Source of the DNA: Candidatus Daviesbacteria bacterium | GTDB lineage: Bacteria > Patescibacteriota > Microgenomatia > Daviesbacterales > UBA10151 | DNA: 64,000 nucleotides | Assembly: GCA_016184225.1 (NCBI GenBank) | Contig: JACPDA010000004.1 | Coordinates: forward strand, 134,800-198,799 | Direction: 5' to 3' | In this document: piece after piece, positions 7,403-62,924 of the stretch | Position numbering within the stretch: position 1 is the first letter of the stretch | Layout: each line of letters begins with the position of its first letter | The notes under the pieces: model-generated | The model's input: the letters and a program-made list of their open reading frames with translations, nothing else | Database searches by the model: none | What the model was told of the DNA's origin: nothing | Made by a program: the position numbers and the translations under genes

Positions 7403-7466
7403 TTCTCGACAAGCTCGAACAATAATATTTATTCTTCGACCGAGCGTAGCGAGTGGAGAAGTACAT
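7403..7466. repeat. X-Y repeat pair upstream of the GIY-YIG gene (TTCTCGACAAGCTCGAACAATAA + TTATTCTTCGACCGAGCGTAGCGAGTGGAGAAGTACAT)
   Basis: Both halves recur in the order Y then X at 8962-9067, on the far side of the MFS gene. Confidence 0.7.
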
Positions 7467-7468
7467 CC

Positions 7469-7741
7469 ATGAAAAAGCAGTGGAAGTGGTATGTTTATAT
7501 CGTTGAATGTTTAGATGGGACATATTATACAGGTTGCACATGGAATATTCTTAATAGAATGGAACAGCATATTTCTCGACTAGGCTCGAAATATACCCAG
7601 AAGCATGGTTTCAAACAGCTTGTATATTTTGAGGAGCATAATAATTTGGAAAATGCCCGTTTAAGGGAAAAACAAGTTAAAAATTGGAATCAGGAGAAGA
7701 AAAGAAAGCTAATTGACGGCGAATGGAAAAAGGATTGGTAA
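7469..7741 (+). CDS. GIY-YIG nuclease family protein (UPF0213/YhbQ-like, catalytic domain only)
   Basis: 90 aa. GIY-YIG core: WYVYIVEC..GTYYTGCT..NRMEQH; downstream arginine and conserved E/N. Confidence 0.75.
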   Translation: MKKQWKWYVYIVECLDGTYYTGCTWNILNRMEQHISRLGSKYTQKHGFKQLVYFEEHNNLENARLREKQVKNWNQEKKRKLIDGEWKKDW

Positions 7742-10693: not shown

Positions 10694-13009
10694 TTAGCCT
10701 CGACTATCTTCCGGCCATTGAGTTACCATGATCGATTTACCCTTATGAGGCAGTTTTTGCCAGAGTTCTTCTGTCAGAAATGGCATGAATGGATGCAGTA
10801 GCTCCAAAGAGGTTTTCAAAACATGCTCCAAAATCGGTTGAGTTTCAGTTCGTCTGGCTTTTGATTTTTCAATATAGACATCAGCAAATTCATGCCAGAT
10901 GAATTCATAAAGAGATTCAGTTGCCAAATGAAGCTGGAAACTTTCCAGGTTTTTAGTAACAGATTTTATCGTCTTGGTTAATTCATCCATGATCTTTTTG
11001 TCATCAGGATGAGTAGTGTCATTCTGGGGAGCGTTAGCGACTCCAGAATCTAGAGTAGGATTCTGGTCCTCGCCAGAATGACGTGTTGTGCCCTCCGGCT
11101 TGAGCTCAATTATGAATCTATAAATATTGCGCAGTTTGGTACCAAAATTACGGAAGTTTTTACACCGCTCATCCATTTGCTGCCTGGAAGTCCGTCCGTC
11201 CCGGCCGGGAATGGAATAGCCATACAGAGCCATCCTGGTAGCATCAACTCCCCACTGGGCCACCAAATCATAAGGGCTGATGCCATTACCCAAAGACTTG
11301 GAAAACTTTCTGCCCTGGATATCTCTTAGCATGCCATGGAAGAACATGTTTTTAAAGGGAATTTCATCCTTGAACCAAAGTCCCAGCATAATCATCCGGG
11401 CTATCCATAAAAACTTGATTTCCGGGGCTGAAGTTTCAAAATCCCAAGGAAAATATTTTTTAAGTTCTTTGGTTTCCTCCGGTTTATCCTGAGCGAAGTC
11501 GAAGGACCAGCCTAAAGTAGCCATCGGCCAAAGCCCGGAAGAAAACCAGGTATCCAGAACTTGTTCATCCTGCACCCAATGCTTCTCCCCGCAGGTTTGG
11601 CAGTTTTTACCAGGTTCTTCAAGGGAGATAACCATATCTTTAAGACCGTCAGGTCGCAAGCTTTGCTTATCCTTGCCTACTAAATGATTAGGATTGCACT
11701 TCTCACAGTACCAAACCGGGATCCGGTGTCCCCACCAAAGAGAACGGGAAATTGACCAGTCATGAATTTCTTTTAACCAGTTACCCAATATTTTTTGGTA
11801 ATTTTTTGGCAGAAAATTAATCCGCCTTAAGTTTTTTAAGGCTTTTTCTGCTAAAGGCGCCATTTTGACAAACCACTCCTCAGAAATCAGCGGTTCGATG
11901 GTAGTTTTGCACCTTTCACAAACAGGAACCGAATGGGTATAGTCTTCCTCTTTTTCAATGGCCCCAACGCTTTCTAACTCCTCCACGGCTTTTTGTCGCG
12001 CCTCGGCAATTTTTAAGCCTGCTAGATTTTTTGCCAGTTCAGTCATCCGGCCGGTTTTATCAATGGCATGTAAAATTGGTAGGTTGTGATCTTTCCCTAT
12101 TTCATAATCTAAGGGGTCGTGGCCAGGTGTGATCTTTAAGGCTCCGGTGCCGAAACCCTTGTCTACCCGTTTATCTTCAAAAATTGGGGTCTTATTGCCG
12201 TTTAAGGGATTAAGAGCGTTTTTACCGACAAATTGGTTAAATTTGGGATGCTTGGGGTAGACGGCAATGCCGGTATCGGCATAAATTGTCTCGGGACGGG
12301 CTGTAGCAATGGTAATAAAGTCATTTGTCATGCTGGCTTGTCCAGCATCTTTCTGAGATTCTGGAGTCGCTTCGCTCCCCAGAATGACACTTTCATTTTT
12401 GATTTGATACCTGACAAAATATAGTTTTTCTTTTCTTTCCTGGTATTCCATTTCCAAATCTTCAATGGCTGTAGCATCTTTGGGACACCATTGGACAATG
12501 TAGGCTCCTTTATACAAGAGGTCCTGATCCCAAAAAGTTTTAAACTCAGCCAGGACTGCTTTTTGAACCTGGGGGTCCAGGGTAAAAACTTCTTTTGACC
12601 AGTCAGCCGAGATGCCCATTAAGTCCCAAGTTTTATGAAAAGAGTTGTAGACTTCTTCTTTAAATTGCCAGGCGCGTTTGAGCCAATCTTCCCGCCCTAA
12701 CTTTTGTTTTGATAATCCTTCTTTTTCCAGGATTTTATTAAAAGTGCCTTCAAAGAGGATTCCGGCATGGTCCACTCCTGGTAAAAGCAGGACGTCATGC
12801 CCCTGCATCCTCTTAAATCGGGCAATGGCGTCCATAATAGAGTGTTCCATGGCATGGCCTAAATGGAGTTCCCCGTTCACATTAGGTGGAGGCATTAGCA
12901 GGGAGTAGGGCTTTTTGTCTGAGTCAGGGTTGGCAGCAAACAACCCTTCTTTTTCCCAAAACTGGTACCACTCACTTTCAGTTTCTTCCTGATTTTGAGT
13001 CTTTGCCAT
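10694..13009 (-). CDS. valS: Valine--tRNA ligase
   Basis: Class I aaRS HIGH motif (PPPNVNGELHLGHAMEH) and KMSKS motif (KFSKSLGN). ValRS-type editing region contains WFSSGLWPMATLGW. Start MAKTQNQ chosen inside the tool ORF 10694-13087. Carries two in-frame palindromic insertions. Confidence 0.85.
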   Translation of the reverse strand: MAKTQNQEETESEWYQFWEKEGLFAANPDSDKKPYSLLMPPPNVNGELHLGHAMEHSIMDAIARFKRMQGHDVLLLPGVDHAGILFEGTFNKILEKEGLSKQKLGREDWLKRAWQFKEEVYNSFHKTWDLMGISADWSKEVFTLDPQVQKAVLAEFKTFWDQDLLYKGAYIVQWCPKDATAIEDLEMEYQERKEKLYFVRYQIKNESVILGSEATPESQKDAGQASMTNDFITIATARPETIYADTGIAVYPKHPKFNQFVGKNALNPLNGNKTPIFEDKRVDKGFGTGALKITPGHDPLDYEIGKDHNLPILHAIDKTGRMTELAKNLAGLKIAEARQKAVEELESVGAIEKEEDYTHSVPVCERCKTTIEPLISEEWFVKMAPLAEKALKNLRRINFLPKNYQKILGNWLKEIHDWSISRSLWWGHRIPVWYCEKCNPNHLVGKDKQSLRPDGLKDMVISLEEPGKNCQTCGEKHWVQDEQVLDTWFSSGLWPMATLGWSFDFAQDKPEETKELKKYFPWDFETSAPEIKFLWIARMIMLGLWFKDEIPFKNMFFHGMLRDIQGRKFSKSLGNGISPYDLVAQWGVDATRMALYGYSIPGRDGRTSRQQMDERCKNFRNFGTKLRNIYRFIIELKPEGTTRHSGEDQNPTLDSGVANAPQNDTTHPDDKKIMDELTKTIKSVTKNLESFQLHLATESLYEFIWHEFADVYIEKSKARRTETQPILEHVLKTSLELLHPFMPFLTEELWQKLPHKGKSIMVTQWPEDSRG
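11018..11082. mobile_element. MITE-like GTCATTCTGG...CCAGAATGAC element inserted in-frame in valS
   Basis: Two hairpins: GTCATTCTGG-loop-CCAGAATC and GATTCTGG-loop-CCAGAATGAC. Translated as ...DSGVANAPQNDTTHPDD... inside ValRS. Confidence 0.75.
12321..12388. mobile_element. Second GTCATT...CCAGAATGAC hairpin element in-frame in valS
   Basis: GTCATTTGTCATGCTGG..CCAGCATC + GATTCTGG..CCAGAATGAC. Inserted peptide ESVILGSEATPESQKDAGQAS lies between conserved ValRS blocks. Confidence 0.7.
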
Positions 13010-13019
13010 GATAGCGCCA

Positions 13020-13679
13020 TTATACTCTATCGGTAGGTGTATCCTTCTTAGATAGAGGCCCGTAGTCGGTAATACGGGATAAGTCATAGGTTGAATATAG
13101 CAGCTTGTGGTTTGGGCCTTGACGGCAAATAGTAATAGTGCCTAGTCTAGGATTTTTAGTAACCGAGACAAGTGTCTCGACTGGGCATCTGTCAATATAA
13201 TTATTAATTTTTAAGTAGAACCCGGAGCTGCCTTTTTCTTTTAGCTCCTGGGCTGTAATGACAAATAAATCTTTAGGTCGGTCTTCCGGGTGATTTAGGT
13301 AATGTTTGTCAGTTTGAATTTGGTCGAGACGAAATATTTCCGGGTAATAGCGGTCTAGCCCAGTTGTCAAGTTAGGAGGCTGTTTTGAGTGCCATTCCCG
13401 CGGGTTGATTGTGTTGTTCGTAATACTCTTTTCAGGGCGTTGAGGCTTGGGGCGCAATTCCAGATAGATAGGAGTTGTGGGATCAAATATTTCTTCCCGA
13501 AGGTCTAGGCGCTTTAGAACAACTTCCTCTTGACCATCTGCCCCGATCCTAACAGAAAACCGGGTATAAGTTCCGGGCGTTACAGGTGTTGCTTGTAAGC
13601 CTACCCACAACCTTCTATTGTAGTCTAGCGGCCGTTCATCTCCCATTTCTATATTCATAATAAACAAAAGTAGCCTCAA
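13020..13679 (-). CDS. Hypothetical protein
   Basis: 219 aa ORF with no recognisable motif; true start may be one of the internal Met codons near the N-terminus. Confidence 0.35.
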   Translation of the reverse strand: MRLLLFIMNIEMGDERPLDYNRRLWVGLQATPVTPGTYTRFSVRIGADGQEEVVLKRLDLREEIFDPTTPIYLELRPKPQRPEKSITNNTINPREWHSKQPPNLTTGLDRYYPEIFRLDQIQTDKHYLNHPEDRPKDLFVITAQELKEKGSSGFYLKINNYIDRCPVETLVSVTKNPRLGTITICRQGPNHKLLYSTYDLSRITDYGPLSKKDTPTDRV

Positions 13680-19353: not shown

Positions 19354-19430
19354 GTCATTGCGAGCGATTAGCGTGGCAATCTTAATTAATCAAGATTCCC
19401 ACGGGTCGAAGTATCGACCCTCGGAATGAC
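19354..19430. mobile_element. GTCATTGCGAG...GGAATGAC hairpin element filling the ahcY-pfkB intergenic gap
   Basis: GTCATTGCGAGCGATTAGCGTGGCAATC + GATTCCCACGGGTCGAAGTATCGACCCTCGGAATGAC. Lies between the pfkB stop (19433) and the ahcY start (19345). Confidence 0.7.
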
Positions 19431-19432
19431 AT

Positions 19433-20419
19433 TTAGGGTAGTTTTAATTCTCCCCCAAAATTTTCCTGGTATCTTTTCCGAAACTCTTCAATTGTGAAAG
19501 TGTGATTAGTTGTACCATATTTTTCAATGGCGTAACAAGCAGCAATAGACCCCATTTGGGCGCAAACTTTCAAGTCTAAATCTTTGGTAAAGCCGGTTAA
19601 AAAGCCGGCCCGATATGCATCTCCGGCGCCGGTGGGATCCACCACTTGATTGAGTTTTCCAGCTTTAATTGACCACCTTCCAGGCAAAGACACCTCGGGG
19701 GTGGGCTTTGACTCCCCCGAGGTGGATATAGTTTTTCCTGTTTGGATGGTTGAGCCTTTTTCACCTAGGGTAGTAATCAGGATTTTAACCTGGTTTAACA
19801 GTTGTTCGTCATCCAGCATCAGTTTTTCTTTCAAAAGAGCAATTTCATAATCATTACCGATTAAAATTTCAGCCCCAGTTAGCATTTCCCGGAGGTCCCC
19901 CGGAGATAAGGCCGGCAGCTGCATGCCGGGGTCCAGCATATAAGGGATTTTTAAGCTTTGGCATTGCTGAGTGAGTTTCACCATAGCCTGGGGGTTGTTG
20001 GGAGAAATTACCACAAAATCAGTGGTGATGCCTTTTAGGGATAACTGAGAAGCATAGTCCATGGCTCCGGGATAAAAGGCGCTAATTTGATTATCAACTT
20101 TGTCAGTCATGATAAAAGCCGAAGAAGTTAAATTGTTTTGGGCGGTTTGAATTTTGGAAATATCCACTCCGGCTTTGACCAGAAACTGGGCATACTCAGT
20201 AAAATCCACCCCGGCCATGCCAACTATACCCACAGGAGTTTTTAGCAAACTTAAATTATAGGCAATATTGCCGGCTGTGCCGCCTTTTTGTTTGGTTAAA
20301 GTGTTAACTAAAAAGGATAAATTGATCTGGTGGATTTTATCCGGCATGATGTGGTCGGAAAATTTGCCCGGATAATCCATGATATGATCAAAAGCGAGTG
20401 AGCCGGTAACTGTGATCAT
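19433..20419 (-). CDS. PfkB-family carbohydrate/nucleoside kinase (possibly adenosine kinase)
   Basis: C-terminal PfkB signature DPTGAGDAYRAGFLTG. Adjacent to ahcY, so an adenosine kinase role is plausible. Confidence 0.7.
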   Translation of the reverse strand: MITVTGSLAFDHIMDYPGKFSDHIMPDKIHQINLSFLVNTLTKQKGGTAGNIAYNLSLLKTPVGIVGMAGVDFTEYAQFLVKAGVDISKIQTAQNNLTSSAFIMTDKVDNQISAFYPGAMDYASQLSLKGITTDFVVISPNNPQAMVKLTQQCQSLKIPYMLDPGMQLPALSPGDLREMLTGAEILIGNDYEIALLKEKLMLDDEQLLNQVKILITTLGEKGSTIQTGKTISTSGESKPTPEVSLPGRWSIKAGKLNQVVDPTGAGDAYRAGFLTGFTKDLDLKVCAQMGSIAACYAIEKYGTTNHTFTIEEFRKRYQENFGGELKLP

Positions 20420-23575: not shown

Positions 23576-23589
23576 GAGCTATCAGCCTT

Positions 23590-23653
23590 CAGTCATCAGT
23601 CGTCAGACAATTTGTTTTCTAGTCTGATAGCTGACAGCTGAAGACTGACGACT
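23590..23653. repeat. Palindromic GTCGTCAGAC/GTCTGACGAC-type repeat in the 5' leader of the SBP gene
   Basis: CAGTCATCAGTCGTCAGAC ... GTCTGATAGCTGACAGCTGAAGACTGACGACT. The same unit recurs in-frame in sbcD at 44930-44956. Confidence 0.7.
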
Positions 23654-26189: not shown

Positions 26190-27211
26190 ATTAGTGGCGG
26201 TAAATTTATGAGTTGGACTTCGGGTTCTAAGGTAATGCCGAATTTTTCTTTCACTTTTTCAGCATAAATCTTGGCCAAATTATGAAACGCTTTGGCTGTT
26301 CCAGTGCCTTGATTTATAAACAGATTGGCATGGTAAGAAGCTATTTCTATACCATCTGATTTTTGGCCTTTGGCCCCGACTTCTTCCAGTAGTGCTCCGG
26401 CAGGAAGTTTTCCAAAAACTATTTTTTCCTGAGGGATATTTTTTAAAATTTCCGGAGAAACCTCCGAAGCCACTAAATTCTTGAAGAAACTGCCCGGGCA
26501 TTTAGTGCCGGGGGGGTATTTTATTAATCTTTTTGATAAAACATCCTGAGCTTCTTCTGCAAGGATTTTTGGGTCCCCCGGTTCCAATTGAAAAATGACT
26601 TCTAAAATAGTGTCTTTGGTTTTTTTAAAAATACTGTCCCGGTAGCTAAATTGACAAGCTTCTTTGGCCATTGTCATTCTGGGGAGCGGAGCGACACCAG
26701 AATCAGATTCTGGACAAGTCCCGATGGAATCGAGGACACTCGACAGAGTCGGTGCCAGAATGACAACTTCTGTTATATGGTCGGAGATTGTCTGGCCATA
26801 TGCCCCGGCATTGCCATAAATTGCCCCTCCAACAGTACCTGGAATACCGGTCAGCTTTTGTAAACCGGAGAGCCCATGATTAATGGCGTAATCAACCAGG
26901 TCTTGTAGTGGAGTGCCGCTTTTAATACTCACCATTACACCCCCGAGGTGTAACCGCATTTCTTCACCTCGGGGGTGAGTTGCTGAAATTCCGGTTATCT
27001 CATTCTTAATCACTAAACACTCTACCCCTTCATCAGCCACCAATAAATTACTGCCGCCGCCTATTATCAGATATGGCAGTGCCTGATCTTTAGCGTATTG
27101 GATAGCTTCTGTTAGCTCTTTTTGTGTGTTAACCTCTACAAATTTTTTAGCCGGGCCACCGATAGATAAAGTGGTTATGTTTTTTAATGGATAGTTTTCT
27201 TGAAATTGCAT
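26186..27211 (-). CDS. murB: UDP-N-acetylenolpyruvoylglucosamine reductase
   Basis: FAD-binding N-terminus (GGPAK..., IIGGGSNLL). Carries two in-frame palindromic insertions. Confidence 0.85.
   Translation of the reverse strand: MQFQENYPLKNITTLSIGGPAKKFVEVNTQKELTEAIQYAKDQALPYLIIGGGSNLLVADEGVECLVIKNEITGISATHPRGEEMRLHLGGVMVSIKSGTPLQDLVDYAINHGLSGLQKLTGIPGTVGGAIYGNAGAYGQTISDHITEVVILAPTLSSVLDSIGTCPESDSGVAPLPRMTMAKEACQFSYRDSIFKKTKDTILEVIFQLEPGDPKILAEEAQDVLSKRLIKYPPGTKCPGSFFKNLVASEVSPEILKNIPQEKIVFGKLPAGALLEEVGAKGQKSDGIEIASYHANLFINQGTGTAKAFHNLAKIYAEKVKEKFGITLEPEVQLINLPPLI
26673..26764. mobile_element. GTCATTCTGG...CCAGAATGAC MITE-like element in-frame in murB
   Basis: GTCATTCTGG..CCAGAATC + GATTCTGGACAAG...CCAGAATGAC. 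The right hairpin (GATTCTGGACAAG) is identical to the right end of the GIY-YIG element at 32025-32046. Inserted peptide LAPTLSSVLDSIGTCPESDSGVAPLPRMT. Confidence 0.8.
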
Positions 27212-27241: not shown

Positions 27242-28210
27242 ATGGAAAAAGCGATATTAAAAACACTTATTTATGCCGATATTTTTGATTATCCCTTAAA
27301 AATTAACGAAATCCAGAAATGGCTAATAGGTAAAAAAGCAACACTTAGACAGGTTGAATCGGCCATAAGCCGGTTAGTTAAAAATTCCAAGTTAAAAGTT
27401 CAAAGCGGTCATTATTTTTTGCCGGGGAAAACGGGTTTAGTGATGCAAAGAAAACGCCGGGAGAATCAGTCTGTTGAGTATTTCCGAAAAGCAAATATGC
27501 TCTGCCAAATTTTAAAAATTATCCCCTGGGTTAAATTGACAGGAATCTCCGGAGGCTTAGCTTTAGGTAATGCTTCTAAAAAAGATGACATAGATCTTTT
27601 TATCGTTACTGCCAGAAATCGCTTGTGGATTTCCCGCCTGCTGGCTTTAGGTGTATTGTCTCTGACGGGGCAAAGAAGAAAAGTTGGGGAAATGGGTAGA
27701 AAGATTGCCGGAAAGTTGTGTATTAATATTTTACTCGAAGAAGATAGATTAGAGCAAGAGAGTAAAGATATCTTTGTTGCACATGAGTTGTTACAGATGA
27801 AGGTTTTATGGCAAAGAGATGGGATTTATGTAAAGTATCTGGGAGACAATTCCTGGGCCTTTGAGTTTTTACCAAATTGGGTGGGTGTTGGGACAGTTCG
27901 TTTGGTCGCAAAAAAACGTTCGTACGGTAGAGACTTACTCACTTGTGAGGATTTTGTGAAAAGCCATGATAGTAAATCATTGAGTCAATCAGCACAAAAT
28001 CCTCAACATTTTTTGATTGACTCAAACTTCACTGTCCTTATTTGTGATTTATTAGAAAAACTGGCTAAATGGTGGCAGCTAAAGATCATGCAGGAGCCAC
28101 AAGGGATGGAGCGGATAGAAGATGGGGCGCTTTATTTTCACCCGCAGGACTGTAGGCTGCGGATTCTTTCTGAATACCAGCGGCGGATTAAAAAACTTAG
28201 CACCCCTTGA
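27242..28210 (+). CDS. Nucleotidyltransferase-domain protein (Pol beta superfamily), hypothetical
   Basis: NTase motif GISGGLALGNASKKDDIDLFIV (G[SG]x9-13 DxD). Contains an in-frame copy of the 1474-1563 hairpin repeat at 27947-28015. Confidence 0.5.
   Translation: MEKAILKTLIYADIFDYPLKINEIQKWLIGKKATLRQVESAISRLVKNSKLKVQSGHYFLPGKTGLVMQRKRRENQSVEYFRKANMLCQILKIIPWVKLTGISGGLALGNASKKDDIDLFIVTARNRLWISRLLALGVLSLTGQRRKVGEMGRKIAGKLCINILLEEDRLEQESKDIFVAHELLQMKVLWQRDGIYVKYLGDNSWAFEFLPNWVGVGTVRLVAKKRSYGRDLLTCEDFVKSHDSKSLSQSAQNPQHFLIDSNFTVLICDLLEKLAKWWQLKIMQEPQGMERIEDGALYFHPQDCRLRILSEYQRRIKKLSTP
27947..28015. repeat. In-frame hairpin insertion (GAGGATTTTGTG ... CACAAAATCCTC) in the nucleotidyltransferase CDS; copy of the intergenic repeat at 1474-1563
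   Basis: 12-bp perfect inverted repeat. Flanking CTCACTTGTGAG and GCACAAAATCCTCAACATTTTTTG match 1474-1551. Reads as LLTCEDFVKSHDSKSLSQSAQNPQHFL. Confidence 0.75.
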
Positions 28211-31248: not shown

Positions 31249-31262
31249 AGTTTAGTATAAAT

Positions 31263-31661
31263 ATGACTGAGAAAGTACCTGAAAATCCTACTGATGTTTT
31301 TAGCCTTTTGGATGCACTTTGTGAGGAAGATGGTACTTCTCCGGCTAAGCGTGTAAAGCAGGTGGTTAGTGGGATAAGTAGAGTACATGGTCTGGTAAGG
31401 GATCCGGGAGGGAAATTTACTGTTCTGGGGATTGACAAGTTTGACGGTTCGGATTGGGTGGAAGGAAAATTTGATTCACCAGAGGAAGCGTTATCTGCGG
31501 CACGGCGTAGGACAAGTGAGAATAAGCAATTGGCCAGTAGCGCTGATATTGCCACTGTTTTTTATGCCTACAATTCCGAGGGTGTTTACTTGGGTGGTGA
31601 CACTTGGGATGAGGAGGAACGGAGGCTCTATGAGGAAAGCCAAGGTAAAGCTAACCCCTAA
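31263..31661 (+). CDS. Hypothetical protein
   Basis: 132 aa acidic ORF with no recognisable motif. Confidence 0.35.
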   Translation: MTEKVPENPTDVFSLLDALCEEDGTSPAKRVKQVVSGISRVHGLVRDPGGKFTVLGIDKFDGSDWVEGKFDSPEEALSAARRRTSENKQLASSADIATVFYAYNSEGVYLGGDTWDEEERRLYEESQGKANP

Positions 31662-31680
31662 TTTCAGTTCTATTACTTCC

Positions 31681-32046
31681 GTCATTCTGGTAAGTGAGTG
31701 AAACGAATGCACCCAGAATCTTATCAAGGAATATAATAGTTTTATGTATGTTTACATAATGGCTAACAGTAGACCTACCATTTATACAGGAGTAACCAGC
31801 GATCTAATTAGGAGAGTATATGAACATAAGCAGGGATTTATTGAGGGGTTTACTAAAAAGTATCATCTGTATAAACTAATTTACTACGAAGTCGTAGAAG
31901 GACAAATGGAAGCTATTATTAGAGAGAAACAGATTAAAGATATGAATAGGGTAGAGAAATTAGAGATGATCAAAAAATTTAATCCCGATTTTCAGGATCT
32001 TTACCCGCAGATTATTTAAGAACGATTCTGGACAAGCCAGAATGAC
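31681..32046 (+). mobile_element. Full-length GTCATTCTGG...CCAGAATGAC element carrying a GIY-YIG (YhbQ-like) ORF; putative master copy of the MITE-like elements
   Basis: Left terminal hairpin GTCATTCTGGTAAGTGAGTGAAACGAATGCACCCAGAATC (31681-31720). Right terminal hairpin GATTCTGGACAAGCCAGAATGAC (32024-32046). GIY-YIG ORF 31744-32019 lies between them. Confidence 0.7.
31744..32019 (+). CDS. GIY-YIG nuclease family protein (UPF0213/YhbQ-like)
   Basis: 91 aa. GIY-YIG core [28 protein letters not shown]; paralog of the CDS at 7469-7741. Confidence 0.75.
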
Positions 32047-32070
32047 AGAGTTTGTTGTATATTAATAATA

Positions 32071-42341: not shown

Positions 42342-44528
42342 TTAAACCCCAACCACCTCAAAAGTAGAACCTCCTGAGTTCTTGGAAACCTCAATTCTGA
42401 CCGGGAATTCTTCTTTTAACTCTTCTATATGAGTAATCACTAAAATCTTTTCAAAATCATTTTTAATGGCATCTATTGCTTCTATTAACCTGGCTCTCCC
42501 TGGTGCATCTTGAGATCCAAATCCTTCATCAATGACCAAAAATTGTAATTTTGCCCCGGCCCGGTGGGTCAGCAGTTTGGAAATGGCCAGCCGGATACAA
42601 AAATTAACCCGGAAAGCCTCACCTCCCGAGTACATCTCATAAGGCCGCTCACCCATCTCATCAGAAATAATGATGTCTAGTGTTTCTATAATGCCTTTTT
42701 CACCGCCGGCAAGTTTAGTTTTGGTTTCCTTTTGGGTTTCGAAACTGACTTTCATACGGCCTTCGGTAAGCTTTTCCAGCAATTTATTTGTTTCATCCTC
42801 AATTTCCGGGATGGCTGCTTCTATAATCATGGCCTGGATGCCTTTTTTGCCGAATGCCAAAGCCAGCTCTTCAAAAGTTTCTCTTTCCTCCGTTAGGGTA
42901 ATTTTTTCTGCTGACTTTTGTTTCGAGAGATTTTCCATTTGGGCTGTCCGGGAAATTAATTCATTAATCTGTCCCAAAATTCCGCGGGCCGCTTTTTCTT
43001 CTTCACGGATACCGGTAAGTTGATTTTCCGTACCGGTGATTTCCTGGTTTAAATTAATAATTTTTTCTGATAAATCAGGTAGTTTAGTTAATTCCTCCGA
43101 TATTCTATCAACCTGCAACTTTTTATTTTGAAACAGGATCCTCATTTCTAAAACTACTTTTTCCTCTGTTTGCAAAGTGGCTTGAATTGTTAGCTTTTCA
43201 TCATTTTGTTTTTGGATTTCTTCTGAATCCTTAAGTTGCAACAGGATTTGTTGGTATTTTTCAGAATCAAAATAGATGGCTTTTAATTGATTTTCTAAAT
43301 CAGCAATTGTTTGTTCTTCCTTGAAAAAATTAATTTTCTGGAGATCTTTTTTCAGATTTGTGATTTGGGTTGTTAATTGACTGTGCACATGTGATTTTTC
43401 AGCTTTGCCGATTTCCTGTCCGCAAGTCGGACATTTGGCTCCTGTTTTTGATGATGCACTAAGTTGGGCAGTCAGTTTATCTATTTCTTTTTGGATGCTT
43501 TGTGTCTGTTGTTTTTTGACATTAATTTCTCCGTTTGTAACGGATAATTTATTTTTTATTTCCAGTTGTTCATGTCTGATTTTATCCATTTTTTCTTTTT
43601 CCAGTTGCAGGGATTTTAAATTCTGCAATTGCCCGCTGACTTCCTGTAATTTTTGGAGTTGTAGCCCAAGAGAGTCAATTTTACTTTTGCGGTTTTTTCC
43701 CTGAGTGATGATTTCTTCTAATTCTTTTTTATTTTCCAAATAATTTTGCTCTAATTTTTTTCTTTGTTCTGAAGCCAAATTTAGTGCTTCCCGCTCCTCC
43801 CGCAAGGTTTTTAACCTTTCTTCTGAGGCTTTAATTTGTGTTTCAACTTCGGTAATTTTATTTTCGGCTGCCTTTTTCTTTGCTGAACGGTCTTCTTTTT
43901 GGGACAACTCCGCTTCTATTTCCAGGAGTTGATAATCCAGCAGTTGCAGTTTTGTCAGCGCTGCCTTGCTTTTTTCTTTGGCTTTTTCCTCTAAGAGATC
44001 GTAGTGATCTAAGCCTAAAATATCGGCCAAAATCTTTTTCCGCTCAGTCGGGCCTTTGGTGGTAAATTCATCAGCATGGCCTTGACGAAGATATGCAGAG
44101 TTGGTAAATGTCTCAAAGCTTAAATGCAGGGCATCTATTATTTTTTGTTGGGTAGCTTTGATGGTGCCTTCTGTCAGATTATGTCCTGAGCGAACAGAGT
44201 GAGTTGAAGGATTACTACTCCAGAATTCCAGCGCTGTTTGACCGCCGCCTTTTGTTGAACGACTTCTTTTAATAGTAAAGTTATGGCCGTCCAGCTCGAA
44301 TTCAAACTCAGCAGACATATTAACTGCACTTGCATGGATCAGGCTGTCGGAAGAATCCCCGGCCCGGGAAGTACCCCAAATGCACCAGGTGATAGCATCA
44401 AGCAAAGATGACTTACCGGCGCCGTTGAGCCCGGAAATGGCAGCCAGCTTAAATTTTGTAAAATCCAGCTCAGGTGGGCTTTGACCGTAACTTGTAAAAT
44501 TGGATAATGTTAGTTTAACCGGTATCAT
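42342..44528 (-). CDS. sbcC: SbcC/Rad50-family ATPase
   Basis: Walker A ISGLNGAGKSSLLDAI; long coiled coil; zinc hook CPTCGQ; C-terminal Walker B/D-loop FLVIDEGFGSQD. Confidence 0.85.
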   Translation of the reverse strand: MIPVKLTLSNFTSYGQSPPELDFTKFKLAAISGLNGAGKSSLLDAITWCIWGTSRAGDSSDSLIHASAVNMSAEFEFELDGHNFTIKRSRSTKGGGQTALEFWSSNPSTHSVRSGHNLTEGTIKATQQKIIDALHLSFETFTNSAYLRQGHADEFTTKGPTERKKILADILGLDHYDLLEEKAKEKSKAALTKLQLLDYQLLEIEAELSQKEDRSAKKKAAENKITEVETQIKASEERLKTLREEREALNLASEQRKKLEQNYLENKKELEEIITQGKNRKSKIDSLGLQLQKLQEVSGQLQNLKSLQLEKEKMDKIRHEQLEIKNKLSVTNGEINVKKQQTQSIQKEIDKLTAQLSASSKTGAKCPTCGQEIGKAEKSHVHSQLTTQITNLKKDLQKINFFKEEQTIADLENQLKAIYFDSEKYQQILLQLKDSEEIQKQNDEKLTIQATLQTEEKVVLEMRILFQNKKLQVDRISEELTKLPDLSEKIINLNQEITGTENQLTGIREEEKAARGILGQINELISRTAQMENLSKQKSAEKITLTEERETFEELALAFGKKGIQAMIIEAAIPEIEDETNKLLEKLTEGRMKVSFETQKETKTKLAGGEKGIIETLDIIISDEMGERPYEMYSGGEAFRVNFCIRLAISKLLTHRAGAKLQFLVIDEGFGSQDAPGRARLIEAIDAIKNDFEKILVITHIEELKEEFPVRIEVSKNSGGSTFEVVGV

Positions 44529-45727
44529 TATTCTAATAACTGGGCAGCATATTTTTCCAAAGCTTTTTGTTTTGTAACCGGATATTTTTTGGCTTCAAAA
44601 TATTTTTTTAAAGCGGCAATCGGAGTCAGGGTCTCCACATCCTTACCAAAATCTATTTTTTCCCGTTCCAGCCGTTCAACATTTCTGGAAATACCGGCCA
44701 CTAAATGGGCTAAAGAGAGAGCTTTTTTTATTTTATCCATCTCGATATCTTGATCCAGTCCGGCAGGGATATTAATGACTAGCCTGATAATTTTATCTGC
44801 CAGGTCGTGTTTTTTGATTTCATCCAGTATAGTTTGGGTGGGGTCAGGATCTGCACTTTTGAGGTTAACAGTGATAGTTAAAAACTGCCGGGCATTGGTA
44901 GAGATAAACTGATAACTTGTTTGATATTTGTCTGACGTCTGACGACTGACGACTGAAAGCTCTACTAAACAAATTCCTTTTTCCTCTTTTTCCTCCCCGA
45001 AATCTATCCGTTGTGGCGAGCCGGAATAAACAATTAATGGTCCGCCCGCTTCGCGAGGCGAGCCCGCCGGCGGATTGGAAAGAACTTGGTGTTTGTGGAT
45101 ATGGCCCAAGGCCACATAATTTAGCCTTTTGTCTTGTAGCAAGGGTAGGGGAAGGGTAATATCATTCCCAATTGCCAGACCTTTTTCACTTCCGAACTGC
45201 GCCCCCACTATTTCAGCATGGGACAGTAAAACAGCAGGGGAATCAGGAGTAATTTTGTCATAGAGTAATTTTAGTTTTTCAGCCACGGTTTTGTAGTCGT
45301 TTTTATGTAACCAGGGTAGGGTGACTACTTGTAAGTTTCCGGATTTGGTGGGAATTTGCAAAATTTCCGGATGTCTGGAAACCCAGACATTATCTATCTC
45401 CAAGGCTGAATAGATATCCAAAGTATTGGCTTTGCCTTCTGCATTGGGGGTGTCGTGATTTCCCACTACCAAAACAACAGGGATTTTTTTGGCCAGTTTA
45501 GCAATCCTTTCACCAAAACCCCGCTGTTGGGTGGGGTTGGGATCACGGGTTTTATAGGCATCACCGGCAAAGATCACTGCATCGACATTTTCTTTAAAAG
45601 CAGTTTCTACAATAAAATCAAAAGTATTGAAAAAATCCAGCAGCCTGGTGGAAAGTCCGGTTTCCGGATCCAATTTAGAGTAATTTTCCATGCCAATATG
45701 AAGGTCAGAAAAGTGAAGTAGTTTCAT
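44528..45727 (-). CDS. sbcD: SbcD/Mre11-family nuclease
   Basis: Calcineurin-like phosphoesterase motifs MKLLHFSDLHIG, GDAYK, GNHD, GHIH. Carries in-frame repeat insertions at 44930-44956 and 45030-45070. Confidence 0.85.
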   Translation of the reverse strand: MKLLHFSDLHIGMENYSKLDPETGLSTRLLDFFNTFDFIVETAFKENVDAVIFAGDAYKTRDPNPTQQRGFGERIAKLAKKIPVVLVVGNHDTPNAEGKANTLDIYSALEIDNVWVSRHPEILQIPTKSGNLQVVTLPWLHKNDYKTVAEKLKLLYDKITPDSPAVLLSHAEIVGAQFGSEKGLAIGNDITLPLPLLQDKRLNYVALGHIHKHQVLSNPPAGSPREAGGPLIVYSGSPQRIDFGEEKEEKGICLVELSVVSRQTSDKYQTSYQFISTNARQFLTITVNLKSADPDPTQTILDEIKKHDLADKIIRLVINIPAGLDQDIEMDKIKKALSLAHLVAGISRNVERLEREKIDFGKDVETLTPIAALKKYFEAKKYPVTKQKALEKYAAQLLE

Positions 45728-45765: not shown

Positions 45766-46923
45766 ATGGCCATGTTTAAGCCTAGAATAAACAATCTTAG
45801 ACACAAACTTCTAGAAGAAAAACTGGACGGCGTTTTAATTTCTTCTGTTTCCAATATTAGCTATCTAACTGGTTTTACCAATTTTTCGGAAAAAGAGCGG
45901 GAGGCGTATATTTTTATTGGCAGCGATTTTGCCTACATTATTACTGATGCCAGGTATTCAGAGGCAGTAAAAAAACAGGTTCCACACTTAACCCTTTTTG
46001 AAAGAAGTCACAATAAACCAACCAAGACTCTATTTAAAAAACACCAAAAAGAGATAAAACAGCTAGGGATTGAAGAAGATAATTTAACAGTCTTAGAGCA
46101 CAAGTCTTTGAGCAAACATTTTAAAAAAATAAAACATTTTGATGTTTCCGGTTTAAGAAGTATTAAAAATGAAAAAGAAATCAGCAAAATAGAGAAGGCT
46201 TGCCGAATTGGGGATTTGGCTTTCGATTATATTGTAAAAAAGATTAGGACTGGAGTAACTGAAAAACAGATGGCAGAGGAGTTGGAAAATTTCATCAGAA
46301 GTAAAGGTGCTAGGTTTTCTTTTCCGCCGATTATAGCTTTTGGTAAAAATTCCAGTGTGCCGCATCATCAAACAGGTCCTTCGACTCTCTTCGTTCGCTC
46401 AGGACGAGAAGGACTAATTATCCTTCTCGATTTTGGTGTTAAGGTTGATAATTATTGTTCTGATATGACCAGGACTGTATTTTTCGGAAAACTAACTGGT
46501 AAACAAAAAGAAATTTATGAAGTGGTTTTGGCAGCCCAACAAAAAGCTGTGGGTTATATCAATTCTGTCCTTCGACTTCGCTCAGGATCTTCGACTAGAT
46601 CATTAAAAGCTTCTGAAGTGGACAAGGTTGCCAGGGATTATATTGTTTCCAAAGGTTATCCCACTATTCCCCATTCCTTGGGGCATGGAATCGGTTTGGA
46701 AGTGCACGAGCATCCCAGTCTATCACCCAAAAGCAGGGAAATTTTACAAGAAGGGATGGTTTTTTCGATTGAACCGGGAATATACATTCCTGATTTTGGC
46801 TCGCCTCGCTCGACGCGAGTCGAAGCGGGCGGAGTCAGGATTGAAGATTTATTTGTTTTGAAAGACAACGGGTTAAGGCAACTTACCAACTCGCCAAAGG
46901 GAATAATTTCTGTTAACATTTAG
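45766..46923 (+). CDS. pepP: Xaa-Pro aminopeptidase / M24 family peptidase
   Basis: M24 pita-bread fold motifs (HGLGHGIGLEVHE, SIEPGIY, GGVRIED). Three GC-rich palindromic in-frame insertions. Confidence 0.8.
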   Translation: MAMFKPRINNLRHKLLEEKLDGVLISSVSNISYLTGFTNFSEKEREAYIFIGSDFAYIITDARYSEAVKKQVPHLTLFERSHNKPTKTLFKKHQKEIKQLGIEEDNLTVLEHKSLSKHFKKIKHFDVSGLRSIKNEKEISKIEKACRIGDLAFDYIVKKIRTGVTEKQMAEELENFIRSKGARFSFPPIIAFGKNSSVPHHQTGPSTLFVRSGREGLIILLDFGVKVDNYCSDMTRTVFFGKLTGKQKEIYEVVLAAQQKAVGYINSVLRLRSGSSTRSLKASEVDKVARDYIVSKGYPTIPHSLGHGIGLEVHEHPSLSPKSREILQEGMVFSIEPGIYIPDFGSPRSTRVEAGGVRIEDLFVLKDNGLRQLTNSPKGIISVNI

Positions 46924-48031: not shown

Positions 48032-49059
48032 TATTTTCCCAGTAATTTTAACAGGAACACCTTGAGTGGAGTTAATTTGTCGATAACTGTAAACATCCAA
48101 TACACCGGCCAGTTAAAAACTAAATCATAAGTGCCAATATATTCGGTTAACTTTCCACCGTAACCTTGTTTAAATTTATGGAACCCGAACCAGGGATCTT
48201 TGGGGTCAGCGCTGGGACCCAATGCTCCCCACATGTCAAATTTCTTAAGCCCTAATTTTTGACCCAGTTTAATAGCCTCCCAAGCTACCAGATTATTTGC
48301 CATTACTTCAGGATGAATTTTAGAAGAACCACCGTAAGGGTAATAAAAAGTGTCTTTAAAATTTAGCAGCATCCAGGCAGTTAAGGGTATAGGGGTTAGG
48401 GTATAGGGTTTAGGGTAAAAGGCAATTAACAGTCTGGCCATGCCTGAACTTTTAAGTATTTTCCATACTTGGCGGTGATAATGTTCGTTGTGTCCGTGAT
48501 AACCTTGACGTTTAGTGGTTTCAAAATAAAGTTTTAGATAAATTTCAAAAGCCTCATCATCTGTACGTTCTTCAACTTTCACTCCGTGTTTCTGGGCTAT
48601 TTTGATGTTATATCTGGTTTTAGGGTGCAGATTTTTCAAAAGCTCCTCTTCTGATTTGGTTAGGTCTAATATAAAGTTGTACTTGGTAAATAATGGTTTA
48701 GGGGATTTTATAAATTCTTCTGTTGCCTGTAACCTGTTGCCTGTAACCTGTTCTATATCTGGCTCGACTTTAATAAAGGCACAATTGTTTTCTTTGCCAA
48801 TTTTTTTTAGGGCTACTGCTAATTCTTTATCCGGAAATGGGCCTTTTGGTAAGTATCCGACGTACTGATTAGTTAAGGGGATTTTATGTAAAGTTAACTG
48901 GAAAGCCTTTGATAATTTTCCGTTTTGGTAAATACCATATCTTAAAACCGGAATCCCTAAACTCTTTCTAAACTCCCCCCACTGCCAGGACTCTATAACA
49001 TGGGTAACTAATTTATTGTACTGTGATTTTTGATTGTCGCCAATCGGCCGTAAATCCAT
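48031..49059 (-). CDS. FemAB-family (GNAT-fold) peptidoglycan bridge-formation-like protein
   Basis: 342 aa. FemAB-like N-terminal region (WQWGEFRKSLG...YVGYLPKGP). Contains in-frame heptamer/11-mer repeats at 48381-48420 and 48721-48753. Confidence 0.6.
   Translation of the reverse strand: MDLRPIGDNQKSQYNKLVTHVIESWQWGEFRKSLGIPVLRYGIYQNGKLSKAFQLTLHKIPLTNQYVGYLPKGPFPDKELAVALKKIGKENNCAFIKVEPDIEQVTGNRLQATEEFIKSPKPLFTKYNFILDLTKSEEELLKNLHPKTRYNIKIAQKHGVKVEERTDDEAFEIYLKLYFETTKRQGYHGHNEHYHRQVWKILKSSGMARLLIAFYPKPYTLTPIPLTAWMLLNFKDTFYYPYGGSSKIHPEVMANNLVAWEAIKLGQKLGLKKFDMWGALGPSADPKDPWFGFHKFKQGYGGKLTEYIGTYDLVFNWPVYWMFTVIDKLTPLKVFLLKLLGK
48381..48420. repeat. TAGGGTA/TAGGGTT heptamer array in-frame in the FemAB-like gene
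   Basis: TTAAGGGTATAGGGGTTAGGGTATAGGGTTTAGGGTAAAA; minus-strand translation KPYTLTPIPLT. Confidence 0.8.
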
Positions 49060-51610: not shown

Positions 51611-52348
51611 TTACAGTAAGTAAATATCTACAAATTTTGCTCTCCAGCCTGCAGTTCTTGCATCATCAAAGCCTAAGTCAATAATATTCCCTTTAATGGA
51701 TCCGCCGGTGTCTCCGGCAATGGCTGAACCATATCCGGGAATATAAACTTTTGATCTCAGCTTGATAACTTTGGGATCAACTGCGATCACCCCCTTGCCG
51801 GCCCGCATGCCGATGGCAGTCCATTCGTTGCAACCAGGACAGCGGGAGTCATAATGAGTGGCATAAACTCTCATTTTTTTCCAATATTTAATTTCTCCAT
51901 CCGGAGTGTCCAGTGTTCTCCAGACTATTTTTGTCCCCCGCAAGATCTTTTTGTCTTTAGCCGGAGTTGTTTCAACAGAAATAAGTTCCCTGGAGTACTC
52001 TTCCTGGTCCACCTCGGGGGAGCCAGAGCTCACCCCCGAGGTGTTTGCCGGTTTGTAGTATGTCACTTTAAATATCTTTATTTTTTTGCCATCCTCTCCT
52101 TCTTCCAAAATTTTTTCTTCCCCGGCTTCGGTTTCCGGGTCGTCCTGGTAGGTAACCTTTTTAGGCAGGATCTCTGTTTCTTCCTGCAACTTTTCCGTAA
52201 AAGAAGACTCTGTAGTAATAGGTTGGTTAACTGGCAAAGTTTCCGTGGGGGAAGGGGTGGATTGCCCTAGAACTGATGGGGTTTGGAAAATACTTTTAGC
52301 AAAAAATGTTAAGGATAGGATTAATATAATTCCTAAGTATTTCTCCAT
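51611..52348 (-). CDS. 3D-domain protein (MltA/RpfB-like cell-wall binding or lytic)
   Basis: C-terminal 3D domain VYATHYDSRCPGCNEWTAIGMRAGKGVIAVDPKVIKL...GDTGGSIKGNIIDL. Carries an in-frame CACCTCGGGGG...CCCCCGAGGTG palindrome at 52008-52045. Confidence 0.75.
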   Translation of the reverse strand: MEKYLGIILILSLTFFAKSIFQTPSVLGQSTPSPTETLPVNQPITTESSFTEKLQEETEILPKKVTYQDDPETEAGEEKILEEGEDGKKIKIFKVTYYKPANTSGVSSGSPEVDQEEYSRELISVETTPAKDKKILRGTKIVWRTLDTPDGEIKYWKKMRVYATHYDSRCPGCNEWTAIGMRAGKGVIAVDPKVIKLRSKVYIPGYGSAIAGDTGGSIKGNIIDLGFDDARTAGWRAKFVDIYLL

Positions 52349-52349
52349 G

Positions 52350-54326
52350 TTAAATTCTTAACCACTCATCTTCCTCAACTGGACTGGAATTATCTATTTC
52401 ACCAAGATCATCAACATCTTTGTAGTTTGCATTGCTGGAAATTAAACTCTCTGGAATATCTGATAAGAATCTAGATACCAGATTATTGCTTCTTTGGCCA
52501 AAATACAACCTTTGCCTGGCATAGGTTAAATATAGCTTTTCTTTAGCCCGGGTAATGCCGACGTAACAAAGCCGTCTTTCTTCTTCTAACTCCCTGACAT
52601 CCAACATGGCCCGGGAATGGGGGAATAAGCCTTCTTCCATACCCACTATAAAAACTACCGGGAACTCCAAACCTTTGGCGGAGTGGAGAGTCATTAAGGT
52701 AACTGCATCCTTTTTCGGTGTGTCGGTGTGTCGGTGTGTCGGTGTGTCAGATGCTTCCACTAAGGCCACATTTTCCAAAAATTGGGTTAAATCAGGAAAT
52801 TCTTCTGCCACTGAACGGAGTTCCTTAACGTTTTCCATCCGCATTTTGCCTTCTTCGCTGCTGTCATCTAGGTATTCAAGATAACTTGTGACTTGTAGGA
52901 TTTTATCCAGTAGCTCCAGGGTAGTATAAGGCAAATTGTCATTGCGAGGAGCCGTAGGCGACGCCGCAATCTGGGTAGGATTATTGTCTGGACTAGATTG
53001 CTTCGCTTCGCTCGCAATGACGTTTTGGAGTTCCATGATTTTTGAAAGCCTGCCTTTGCCAATTTTTTCTGCTCTTTTTAGGGAAACAGAATCTTTGGGG
53101 TTTTGTAGCAAACGAAGATAAGCCAGGACATCTTTAATCTCTTTTCTGGCATAAAAGCTGACACCACCAACTAACTGGTAAGGCATGCCTACTTTTAGGA
53201 ACTGCTCTTCCAAGCTTCTGGATTGGGCATTAGTACGGTATAAAATGGCAAAGTCAGATAGTTTTGTTGCACCCTTGGGGTGTGGTATTAAGGGATGAGT
53301 AATAGTATGTAAAATAAACAAGGCTTCTTCAACTTCGTTTCTTACCTCAACTACTTCAATTTTTTCGCCGCCGTCTTTATTGGTCCAAAGTTTTAAGATG
53401 GGATGGGATTTATTTTTGGAAATAATTGCATGTGCCGCATCCAGGATATTTTGGGTGGAGCGATAGTTTTGTTCCAAGTTAAAGATCTTAGCAGTTGGGT
53501 AATCTTTTTGGAAATTAACAATGTTGCGAAAATCAGCTCCCCGGAAGGAATAAATTGATTGGCTGGCGTCTCCCACCACACAGATATTTTTGTGGCGGTT
53601 GCTTAAGTATTTACTGATTAAATATTGGGCCGGGTTAGTATCCTGGTATTCATCTATTAATATGTAACGGAATTGAATTTGGTAGCGGACAAGAATGCTG
53701 GGGTCAGTTTGGAATAATTTAATGACCCCGAGTAGTAGGTCATCAAAATCCAGGGCATGGTTTCGCTCCAAAATCTTCTGGTATTCTAAATATATTTTGG
53801 CTACAGTTTCCTGAAAATAACCTCTGGCATATTGGGGGTATTCCAAAGCAGAAATCAGTTCATTCTTGGCTCCTGATATGTTATTCCGGACAGCAGCAGG
53901 AGAAGTTTTCTGAGTCGGGATATTTAGATTTGCCATGGCTTCTTTAATAGCATCCAAAGCATCCCCTTCGTCATAGATGGCAAACCCCGGGGGGAGTCCC
54001 AGGATCCGACCCTCACGGCGGAGAATCCTGGCGCAAAAACTGTGGAATGTACCCATTATTGGAAGCTGGAAATTAGAAGCTGGAGGCTGGAAATTCAGAA
54101 GTTTTAAGATCCGATCCCGCATCTCGCCGGCGGCTTTGTTAGTGAACGTGACCATAAGAATACTTTCTGGTGGTACACTTTTTTCCTGGATTAAATAAGC
54201 CACCCGATGGGTTAGGGCTTTGGTTTTACCGGAACCGGCCCCGGCCAAAATTAAAACAGGACCCTCGGTGGCCTGAACTGCCTGTTTTTGGATGGGGTTT
54301 AAGTCATCTAAGAGGGAATTGGGCAT
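52350..54326 (-). CDS. UvrD/PcrA-family ATP-dependent DNA helicase
   Basis: Motif I GAGSGKTKALTHRVAYLI, motif II DEYQDTN, motif VI YVGITRAKEKL. Carries an in-frame GTCATTGCGAG element (52938-53021) and a TGTCGGTG x4 repeat (52716-52748). Confidence 0.85.
   Translation of the reverse strand: MPNSLLDDLNPIQKQAVQATEGPVLILAGAGSGKTKALTHRVAYLIQEKSVPPESILMVTFTNKAAGEMRDRILKLLNFQPPASNFQLPIMGTFHSFCARILRREGRILGLPPGFAIYDEGDALDAIKEAMANLNIPTQKTSPAAVRNNISGAKNELISALEYPQYARGYFQETVAKIYLEYQKILERNHALDFDDLLLGVIKLFQTDPSILVRYQIQFRYILIDEYQDTNPAQYLISKYLSNRHKNICVVGDASQSIYSFRGADFRNIVNFQKDYPTAKIFNLEQNYRSTQNILDAAHAIISKNKSHPILKLWTNKDGGEKIEVVEVRNEVEEALFILHTITHPLIPHPKGATKLSDFAILYRTNAQSRSLEEQFLKVGMPYQLVGGVSFYARKEIKDVLAYLRLLQNPKDSVSLKRAEKIGKGRLSKIMELQNVIASEAKQSSPDNNPTQIAASPTAPRNDNLPYTTLELLDKILQVTSYLEYLDDSSEEGKMRMENVKELRSVAEEFPDLTQFLENVALVEASDTPTHRHTDTPKKDAVTLMTLHSAKGLEFPVVFIVGMEEGLFPHSRAMLDVRELEEERRLCYVGITRAKEKLYLTYARQRLYFGQRSNNLVSRFLSDIPESLISSNANYKDVDDLGEIDNSSPVEEDEWLRI
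52716..52748. repeat. TGTCGGTG octamer-like tandem repeat in-frame in uvrD
   Basis: CGGTGTGTCGGTGTGTCGGTGTGTCGGTGTGTC, read as DTPTHRHTDTP. Confidence 0.8.
52938..53021. mobile_element. GTCATTGCGAG...CTCGCAATGAC MITE-like element in-frame in uvrD (84 nt)
   Basis: GTCATTGCGAG..CGCAATC + GATTGC...CTCGCAATGAC. Inserted peptide SEAKQSSPDNNPTQIAASPTAPRNDNL. Confidence 0.8.
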
Positions 54327-62891: not shown

Positions 62892-62924
62892 CTAGGGTCT
62901 AGGGTTTAGGGTCTAGGGTGTAGG
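62892..62924. repeat. Telomere-like heptamer array (CTAGGGT/TTAGGGT/GTAGGGT) in the pilN-rpsT intergenic region
   Basis: CTAGGGTCTAGGGTTTAGGGTCTAGGGTGTAGG. Same TAGGGTN unit as at 48381-48420; reverse complement at 2643-2671. Confidence 0.8.

Follow-up and report, generated by a model that had tools for sequence, protein, structure and literature searches.

A probable Ssn nuclease and GTC-tagged hairpin system in a Candidatus Daviesbacteria genome, with hairpin dimers read in frame inside essential genes

The closest described counterpart of the locus analysed here is the Ssn system of Neisseria. The N. meningitidis protein, SsnA, has 94 aa and a single domain, a GIY-YIG domain of family cd10448 (Chenal et al., Nat Commun 2025, PMC11893778), and binds the hairpin repeat NTS (CGTCATTCCCGCG...GCGGGAATC) as single-stranded DNA only, cutting a few nucleotides upstream. 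Cleavage depends most on the GTC before the NTS palindrome and binding on the C after it, and the Ssn enzymes that have been tested act on single-stranded DNA only and in one strand orientation (PMC11893778). Units of the form hairpin-ssn-hairpin, accompanied by hundreds of scattered cognate hairpins, were already published in 2025, 42% of bacterial Ssn homologs have hairpins of the Ssn-related motif (SRM) on both sides, and Chenal et al. themselves point to the IS-like NTS-ssnA-NTS layout and to the RAYT/REP parallel (PMC11893778). Related hairpins had been grouped in the CGTC-tagged REP superfamily, which includes Neisseria dRS3 and Rickettsia RPE-4 and RPE-6 and is defined by a terminal CGTC (or TGTC/CCTC), an 8-9 bp stem starting from AT, a 4-5 nt loop and a CCA-like tail (Di Nocera et al. 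2013, PMC3733652). That study covered five phyla, CPR not among them, found no associated enzyme gene or transposase, and reported dimers that lie inside genes, DNA-repair genes among them, and encode 20-30 aa there (PMC3733652). The system described below, from a 64-kb stretch of Candidatus Daviesbacteria DNA (hereafter the window; G+C ~40%), is a new example of the published Ssn/hairpin-repeat system and not a new kind of element. A sequence-only reading of the same DNA had taken its architecture to be undescribed, a claim that these 2025 and 2013 reports overturn.

The 366-bp unit at 31681-32046 consists of a left hairpin, a 91-aa GIY-YIG ORF and a right hairpin. The left hairpin (31681-31720, + strand), recognised by sequence and fold, is GTC-tagged and of the A type, with GTC followed by ATTCTGG, a 22-nt loop, CCAGAAT and C; with this long loop its DNA fold z is -1.8. 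The right hairpin (32024-32046, - strand) is of the B type, reads G-ATTCTGG-ACAAG-CCAGAAT-GAC, with GTCATTCTGGCTTGTCCAGAATC as its reverse complement, and folds with z = -5.9. The ends of the unit thus read GTCATTCTGG...CCAGAATGAC, a 10-bp inverted repeat with the GTC heads facing outward. Between them lies ssn (31744-32019, + strand), which encodes a single-domain GIY-YIG nuclease of the Ssn family, as assigned from its match to Pfam PF01541 (E = 1.1e-11; residues 1-69, with no further domain in Pfam) and from its homology to the SsnA locus; an NCBIfam search of the protein returned no match.

For the homology test, the N. gonorrhoeae ortholog was used in place of N. meningitidis SsnA. By BLASTP, the window Ssn is 46% identical over 90 aa to the product of the N. 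gonorrhoeae ssnA locus (E = 8e-29), and tblastn leads to the single ssnA locus of that species (E = 7e-19), found on a chromosome entered in PLSDB as a plasmid; the locus is surrounded by GTCATTCCCGC hairpins. The protein counts as an SsnA homolog under the threshold of Chenal et al. 2025, E < 1e-10 to Neisseria SsnA (PMC11893778). Its GIY-YIG catalytic residues are intact: in an alignment of 42 homologs, the Neisseria sequence included, Y14, R24, H28, E61 and N80 do not vary, and at least 90% of the sequences have Y4. The best PDB matches are UPF0213 structures (BH0048, E = 2e-4; EF2693, E = 6e-3), a marginal similarity far weaker than the match to SsnA, and membership of YhbQ/UPF0213, as the sequence-only reading had proposed, is therefore rejected. 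We note that 2.17-Mb N. gonorrhoeae chromosomes are entered as plasmids in PLSDB, and that in one locus (L008; NZ_CP119142.1 1880219-1883488) the ssnA reading frame lacks an ATG where it would be expected to begin, the nearest ATG being out of frame; this ssnA may be a pseudogene or may use another start codon.

A second, divergent Ssn-like GIY-YIG paralog of 90 aa is encoded at 7469-7741 (+ strand; hmmsearch with the family profile, E = 4e-18); it shares 33% identity with the first copy and 37% with the product of the Neisseria SsnA locus. Its flanks carry no canonical GTCATT hairpins; upstream there are only imperfect palindromes (7403-7465), and the upstream fold is not significant. This paralog may be paired with a different repeat family.

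Relatives of the Ssn protein were sought in one genome per species, giving 80 loci that are mostly from CPR bacteria (Curtiss-, Levy-, Roizman-, Gottesman-, Woyke- and Howlettbacteria, and Saccharibacteria), together with Nitrospirota, Acidobacteriota and Planctomycetota. In 54 of the 80, a + hairpin lies 10-50 nt before the gene and a - hairpin no more than ~15 nt past its stop codon, and at least one flanking hairpin is present in 77. The downstream hairpin is almost invariant (GTCATTCTGGCTTGTCCAGAAT or a CCGG variant) while the proteins are 57-77% identical, and the 22-mer of the right hairpin of the window unit recurs 0-15 nt past the stop in most related loci. Many of the predicted homologs are translated into their hairpins, ending in peptides such as the C-terminal DSGQARMT or VILGS..PES. 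A further 155 hairpins lie away from the gene in these loci, 37 of them within ORFs of at least 150 aa, and adjacent hairpin pairs are heads-out in 38 of 44 cases. Alphaproteobacterial plasmid copies have the same hairpin bracket, also heads-out, and Neisseria has clustered dimers, so heads-out flanking was rejected as a CPR-specific trait. From the homology, the bracketing hairpins and the dispersed copies described below, the window system is probably an Ssn/SRM system in a CPR host, Candidatus Daviesbacteria.

Gene-less elements of two hairpins, 63-92 nt long, are dispersed through the window. The ValRS gene contains two of them in frame, an A + B dimer with heads out at 11018-11082 (aa 669-690, site 2) and a 63-nt B + A dimer at 12326-12388 (aa 234-254, site 1). 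In MurB, an A + B dimer with a nested ~35-nt insert in the B loop is read in frame at 26673-26764 (aa 150-180), and a dimer of the GTCATTGCGAG subfamily, a GCGAG stem variant, is read in frame in the UvrD/PcrA helicase at 52938-53021 (aa 436-463). The remaining dimer, a GCGAG/GGAAT variant, is intergenic and lies in the pfkB-ahcY gap (19354-19430). These copies were recovered at, or within a few bases of, the positions that the sequence-only reading gave; it had listed neither the paralog at 7469-7741 nor a lone 33-nt hairpin that has the GTC head on either strand and is read in frame in a Wzy_C (O-antigen ligase-like) gene at 2177-2209 (aa 198-209). The identities of the host genes were verified as ValRS, MurB, a PcrA/UvrD-type helicase, a PfkB-family kinase and AdoHcy hydrolase.

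The description of the short copies as two terminal hairpins holds and can be extended, in that each dimer comprises one long compound A hairpin (GTCATTCTGGGGAGCG..CGACTCCAGAATC) and one short B hairpin (loop CTTGT or a variant) in the same heads-out layout as the two ends of the ssn unit. Across the five dimers and the two ends of the ssn unit, six two-hairpin elements with 12 units in total, each palindrome is preceded by an unpaired GTC and followed by a C. The tag reads NGTC with N variable, the stem ATTCTGG is a perfect 7 bp that starts with AT, the loop is 5 nt in B-type and far longer in A-type hairpins, and the tail is C followed by variable bases. The two dimers of the GCGAG subfamily (19354 and 52938) differ from the hairpins that flank the ssn gene; together with the paralog at 7469-7741 they suggest, at the level of sequence, more than one enzyme/hairpin pair in this genome. 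Some B-type units contain a nested small hairpin in their loop, with the CTTG loop motif doubled on both sides (26719-26753 in the MurB dimer; also L035 and L068), and look like the insertion of one hairpin into another.

Ortholog alignments show that the inserts in ValRS, MurB and UvrD/PcrA, as well as the other listed copies, are lineage-specific, as the sequence-only reading had supposed for the three proteins, and that the inserted peptides are not conserved ancestral segments. Both ValRS segments are missing from the Thermus structure and from 119 close homologs, and relative to the DNA of the closest insert-free homolog (P0123, 76% identical) site 1 is a 66-nt insertion. The copy at site 1 had been placed at 12321-12388; it is real, but the GTCATT at 12320 is a native Asn-Asp codon pair that is also present in the insert-free ortholog, and the true extent is 12326-12388. 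The MurB element stands in place of a native turn (~ALNTNNLTIEQ) found in insert-free relatives, and the UvrD segment is missing in 67 relatives of ~45-59% identity. In a syntenic relative (L090), pfkB and ahcY overlap by 4 nt, and the window has 91 extra nt that include a 7-nt direct repeat, AAACTAC. The dimer in this gap, thought to fill it exactly, spans 77 of its 87 bases, although the whole gap is new with respect to the relative with overlapping genes.

The ssn unit is missing from the syntenic GroEL-bPH_2 interval in three relatives, where the upstream neighbour of the interval varies per relative, such that presence or absence is visible and the exact ends are not. An exact-protein look-up placed the identical Ssn protein in 13 contigs, all with a single shared genomic context, and there is therefore no direct sign of the gene-bearing unit moving within this genome. 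The GroEL-bPH_2 interval (window 31249-32070) is itself a variable spot that holds here an unrelated 132-aa ORF beside ssn and, in relatives, a YjbQ-like gene (L090 6040-6800), a 204-aa Cys-rich (HNH-like) ORF (L092 6074-6764) or nothing (L094 7808-7827).

Such a pattern invites a reading as a classical insertion sequence with MITEs, in which the GIY-YIG protein would be a cut-and-paste transposase acting on the 10-bp inverted repeats, the short copies would be internal deletions mobilised in trans, and insertion would leave a target-site duplication. The terminal inverted repeats GTCATTCTGG/CCAGAATGAC around the unit, the presence of one A and one B end in each short copy, the AAACTAC repeat flanking the pfkB-ahcY insertion, the occurrence of two ssn units in some genomes (L031/L072, L032/L057 and L041/L046) and the presence or absence of the unit at a syntenic site are all in keeping with it. 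GIY-YIG nucleases hydrolyse DNA, however, and are not known to carry out strand transfer; the Ssn enzymes tested cut single-stranded DNA alone, in one orientation. The flanking repeats are also inconsistent, with 7 nt at one site, a 4-nt ATGA microhomology at another and none evident elsewhere, which speaks against a fixed-length target-site duplication. Single hairpins and mixed-subfamily dimers exist, and in MurB and ValRS the insertions replaced 7-16 native residues instead of being simple additions. Taken together, these observations make an insertion sequence improbable. The sequence-only reading had called the short copies MITE-like derivatives, which is unproven in the transposase sense, given that no transposase is associated with them and that the flanking duplications are inconsistent.

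All five intragenic copies are free of stop codons, in three different codon phases and both orientations, and the read-through that had been noticed in valS, murB and uvrD is thus borne out. The same loops have been struck in other lineages. The hairpin subfamily present at ValRS site 2 and in the MurB loop varies among Daviesbacteria (VILGS../DSGQARMT, VIPAKAGIQ and VIASAAKQS..PRND), as does the codon phase, and the boundaries of the inserts shift by a few residues. As far as sequence can tell, these recurrent hits fit frequent insertion filtered by tolerance better than base-precise targeting.

One in-gene copy is unusually conserved. The ValRS site-2 dimer is identical at 64 of 65 positions (98%) between the window and the P0126 genome. 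For the ValRS gene overall the identity is 75%, and for the 65-300 nt next to the dimer 76-82%; no other 65-nt stretch of the gene is as well conserved. With a background identity of 80%, the binomial probability of no more than one difference in 65 is ~9e-6. In JGI metagenomes, the exact spacer of this dimer was found in orthologous ValRS only; the 98% identity is therefore not due to a widely dispersed identical master copy, and the conservation is a matter of constraint or local homogenisation, not of fresh copies from such a master. The ValRS gene as a whole is a mosaic (window 10694-13087 against L097 975-3137), its DNA being 76-85% identical to P0126 but 59-65% at nt ~600-1100, the editing-domain region, where the window is nearer P0123 than P0126. 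This pattern, as read from the DNA comparison, suggests intragenic recombination.

The conserved dimer would fit a function at the DNA level, and SsnA/NTS modulates transformation in Neisseria (PMC11893778), two points that favour taking the hairpins for structural or regulatory DNA or RNA elements of the host (terminators, mRNA stabilisers, or recombination or uptake signals) that do not spread selfishly. Yet the copies lie in unrelated genes, in all three codon phases and both orientations, different subfamilies occupy the same protein loop in different lineages, and each copy is missing in most relatives. A host role of this kind is very unlikely, as this pattern fits repeated insertions of which those at tolerable sites survive, and not a site-specific host function.

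The published SRM pattern, HGTCWYN(0-2)YYVSBRHN(0-5)WNVSBRGN(0-2)RNCYNB, has no match in the window on either strand, which argues that the window hairpins are a variant and not a textbook match; their stem and loop lengths depart from the pattern. Hairpins were therefore counted with our own GTC-plus-stem scan, adopted after the published pattern had given no matches. The scan counts 11 GTC-headed hairpins whose stem has 7 bp or more, compared with 1.8 +/- 1.5 in 100 dinucleotide shuffles of the 64 kb, and 10 of the 11 have the stem ATTCTGG or ATGCTGG in common. The hexamer GTCATT occurs 45 times in the window versus 29.3 +/- 5.8 in shuffles, an excess that the sequence-only reading had left to be checked along with the similarity beyond the 10-mers and the folding of the termini; copies match one another over 31-33 nt at 94-96% (I3, I22), and all fold as DNA hairpins with z-scores of -3 to -6.3, except the left end of the ssn unit. 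That the pairs are chance palindromes or an assembly artefact, for which the shortness of the shared 10-mers might speak, has a negligible probability against these shuffle controls, the long copy-to-copy matches and the recurrence of the same units in assemblies made independently from many samples. Neither an Rfam nor a tRNA scan of the window gave a match.

Other repeats are present in the window. A second family of hairpins has an 11-bp G+C-rich stem (CACCTCGGGGG...CCCCCGAGGTG; DNA fold z ~ -5.4) and occurs at 19690-19726 and 52008-52044, where it is read through in pfkB and in a 245-aa ORF (51611-52348), respectively; the second copy begins with GTC. A ~29-nt repeat (GTCCTGAGCGAAC...GAAGGA) that does not fold as a hairpin has inverted copies at 44183-44211 and 46377-46405, inside ORFs 42342-44528 and 45766-46923, and some ValRS homologs have C-terminal peptides such as LVLSEVEG that look like members of this family. 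Tandem heptamer arrays (CAGGGTA, AGGGTWT, CAGTCRT, TCTAGAY and similar) lie at 904-953, 2636-2673, 3014-3048, 23576-23610, 44928-44962, 48383-48420, 48720-48758 and 62894-62923, many of them inside or at the ends of ORFs, and resemble the short tandem heptamer repeats of cyanobacteria. Finally, a ~125-nt direct repeat is present in two copies, 79-86% identical and 26.5 kb apart, one intergenic and upstream of a Wzy-like gene (1445-1570) and the other within ORF 27242-28210 (27909-28034); it has no Rfam match.

Given membership of the Ssn/SRM system, a mechanism can be proposed by analogy with the tested Neisseria and Wolbachia enzymes. On the reading with most support, Ssn would be a hairpin-specific nickase that binds its cognate hairpin in single-stranded DNA only and cuts a few bases 5' of the unpaired GTC head. 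Where the heads of a pair face outward, the two strands would each be nicked immediately beyond the element. The 63-92-nt dimers would behave as REPIN-type non-autonomous copies without the gene, and, the genome being gene-dense, most surviving copies would be those in frame in predicted surface loops that tolerate 11-31 extra residues. Ssn would, we infer, be the spreader or maintainer of these copies. Because GIY-YIG enzymes do not join DNA, copying would have to pass through host repair or replication, a route that appears more plausible than transposition.

It is possible, if doubtful, that copying or homogenisation of the CPR dimers is active, and that in Ssn the enzyme long missing for GTC-tagged REPs and for RPE-like in-frame elements has been met; the different subfamilies in the same ValRS and MurB loops and the one dimer conserved above its host gene lend support to active copying. 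Were this the case, Ssn-dependent insertion, replacement or gene conversion would be ongoing at preferred sites in essential genes, a GIY-YIG-driven, repair-mediated mode of mobility unlike that of any transposase.

What lies beyond the published picture is the CPR host, a hairpin variant that escapes the published motif, the loops of ValRS and MurB that are hit repeatedly, and the in-gene dimer conserved at 98% in a host gene conserved at 75%. The Ssn/hairpin system would thereby be extended to CPR bacteria, and the published search motif misses a widespread hairpin variant, which occurs in assemblies of CPR bacteria, Nitrospirota, Acidobacteriota and Planctomycetota. CPR genomes, tiny and gene-dense, are a natural testing ground, with dimers forced into essential genes and the same loops struck repeatedly, and metagenomes make it measurable whether Ssn drives hairpin spread and what the extra peptides do to ValRS, MurB and UvrD. 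For annotation it matters that translated hairpins account for many tails of predicted GIY-YIG proteins and for many odd inserts in CPR proteins.

Set against MITEs and insertion sequences, the elements have terminal inverted repeats and no associated transposase, and the flanking duplication varies by site. The palindromic elements of Rickettsia, as reportedly described by Ogata et al. in 2000, are lineage-specific, sit in essential genes without breaking the frame and add surface peptides to the proteins; RPE-1 is said to be longer (~100-150 bp) and unrelated in sequence. Our hairpin dimers are likened to them by placement, as in-frame, lineage-specific inserts in essential genes. The parallel, drawn already in the sequence-only reading, is apt, with RPE-4 and RPE-6, and only these, tied to the GTC-tagged family (PMC3733652).

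REPIN/RAYT systems likewise combine a single-copy enzyme gene with cognate flanking hairpins, dispersed non-autonomous inverted doublets and a single-stranded DNA hairpin as substrate. They differ in having an HUH/Y1 (IS200/IS605-type) transposase in place of a GIY-YIG hydrolase and a GTAG tag in place of GTC, and the likeness is one of layout and not of homology, no strand-transfer chemistry being known for GIY-YIG proteins.

Judged by sequence features, the window hairpins probably belong to the CGTC-tagged REP superfamily; the unpaired (N)GTC tag, the stem starting with AT, the short tail starting with C and the prevalence of inverted dimers agree, whereas the stem is 7 bp instead of 8-9 bp and the A-type loops are long or compound instead of 4-5 nt (PMC3733652). 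As in the Ssn/SRM system, a ~90-aa single-domain GIY-YIG protein is encoded by a gene bracketed by GTC-tagged hairpins, and the same hairpins are dispersed elsewhere. Unlike the published cases, the host here is a member of the CPR (Daviesbacteria), a group that goes unmentioned, as CPR or Patescibacteria, in the text of that paper; the hairpins have an ATTCTGG stem with a 5-nt loop or an extended compound form, none of which the SRM expression matches; and most copies in the window are intragenic, compared with 2% reported for N. meningitidis (PMC11893778).
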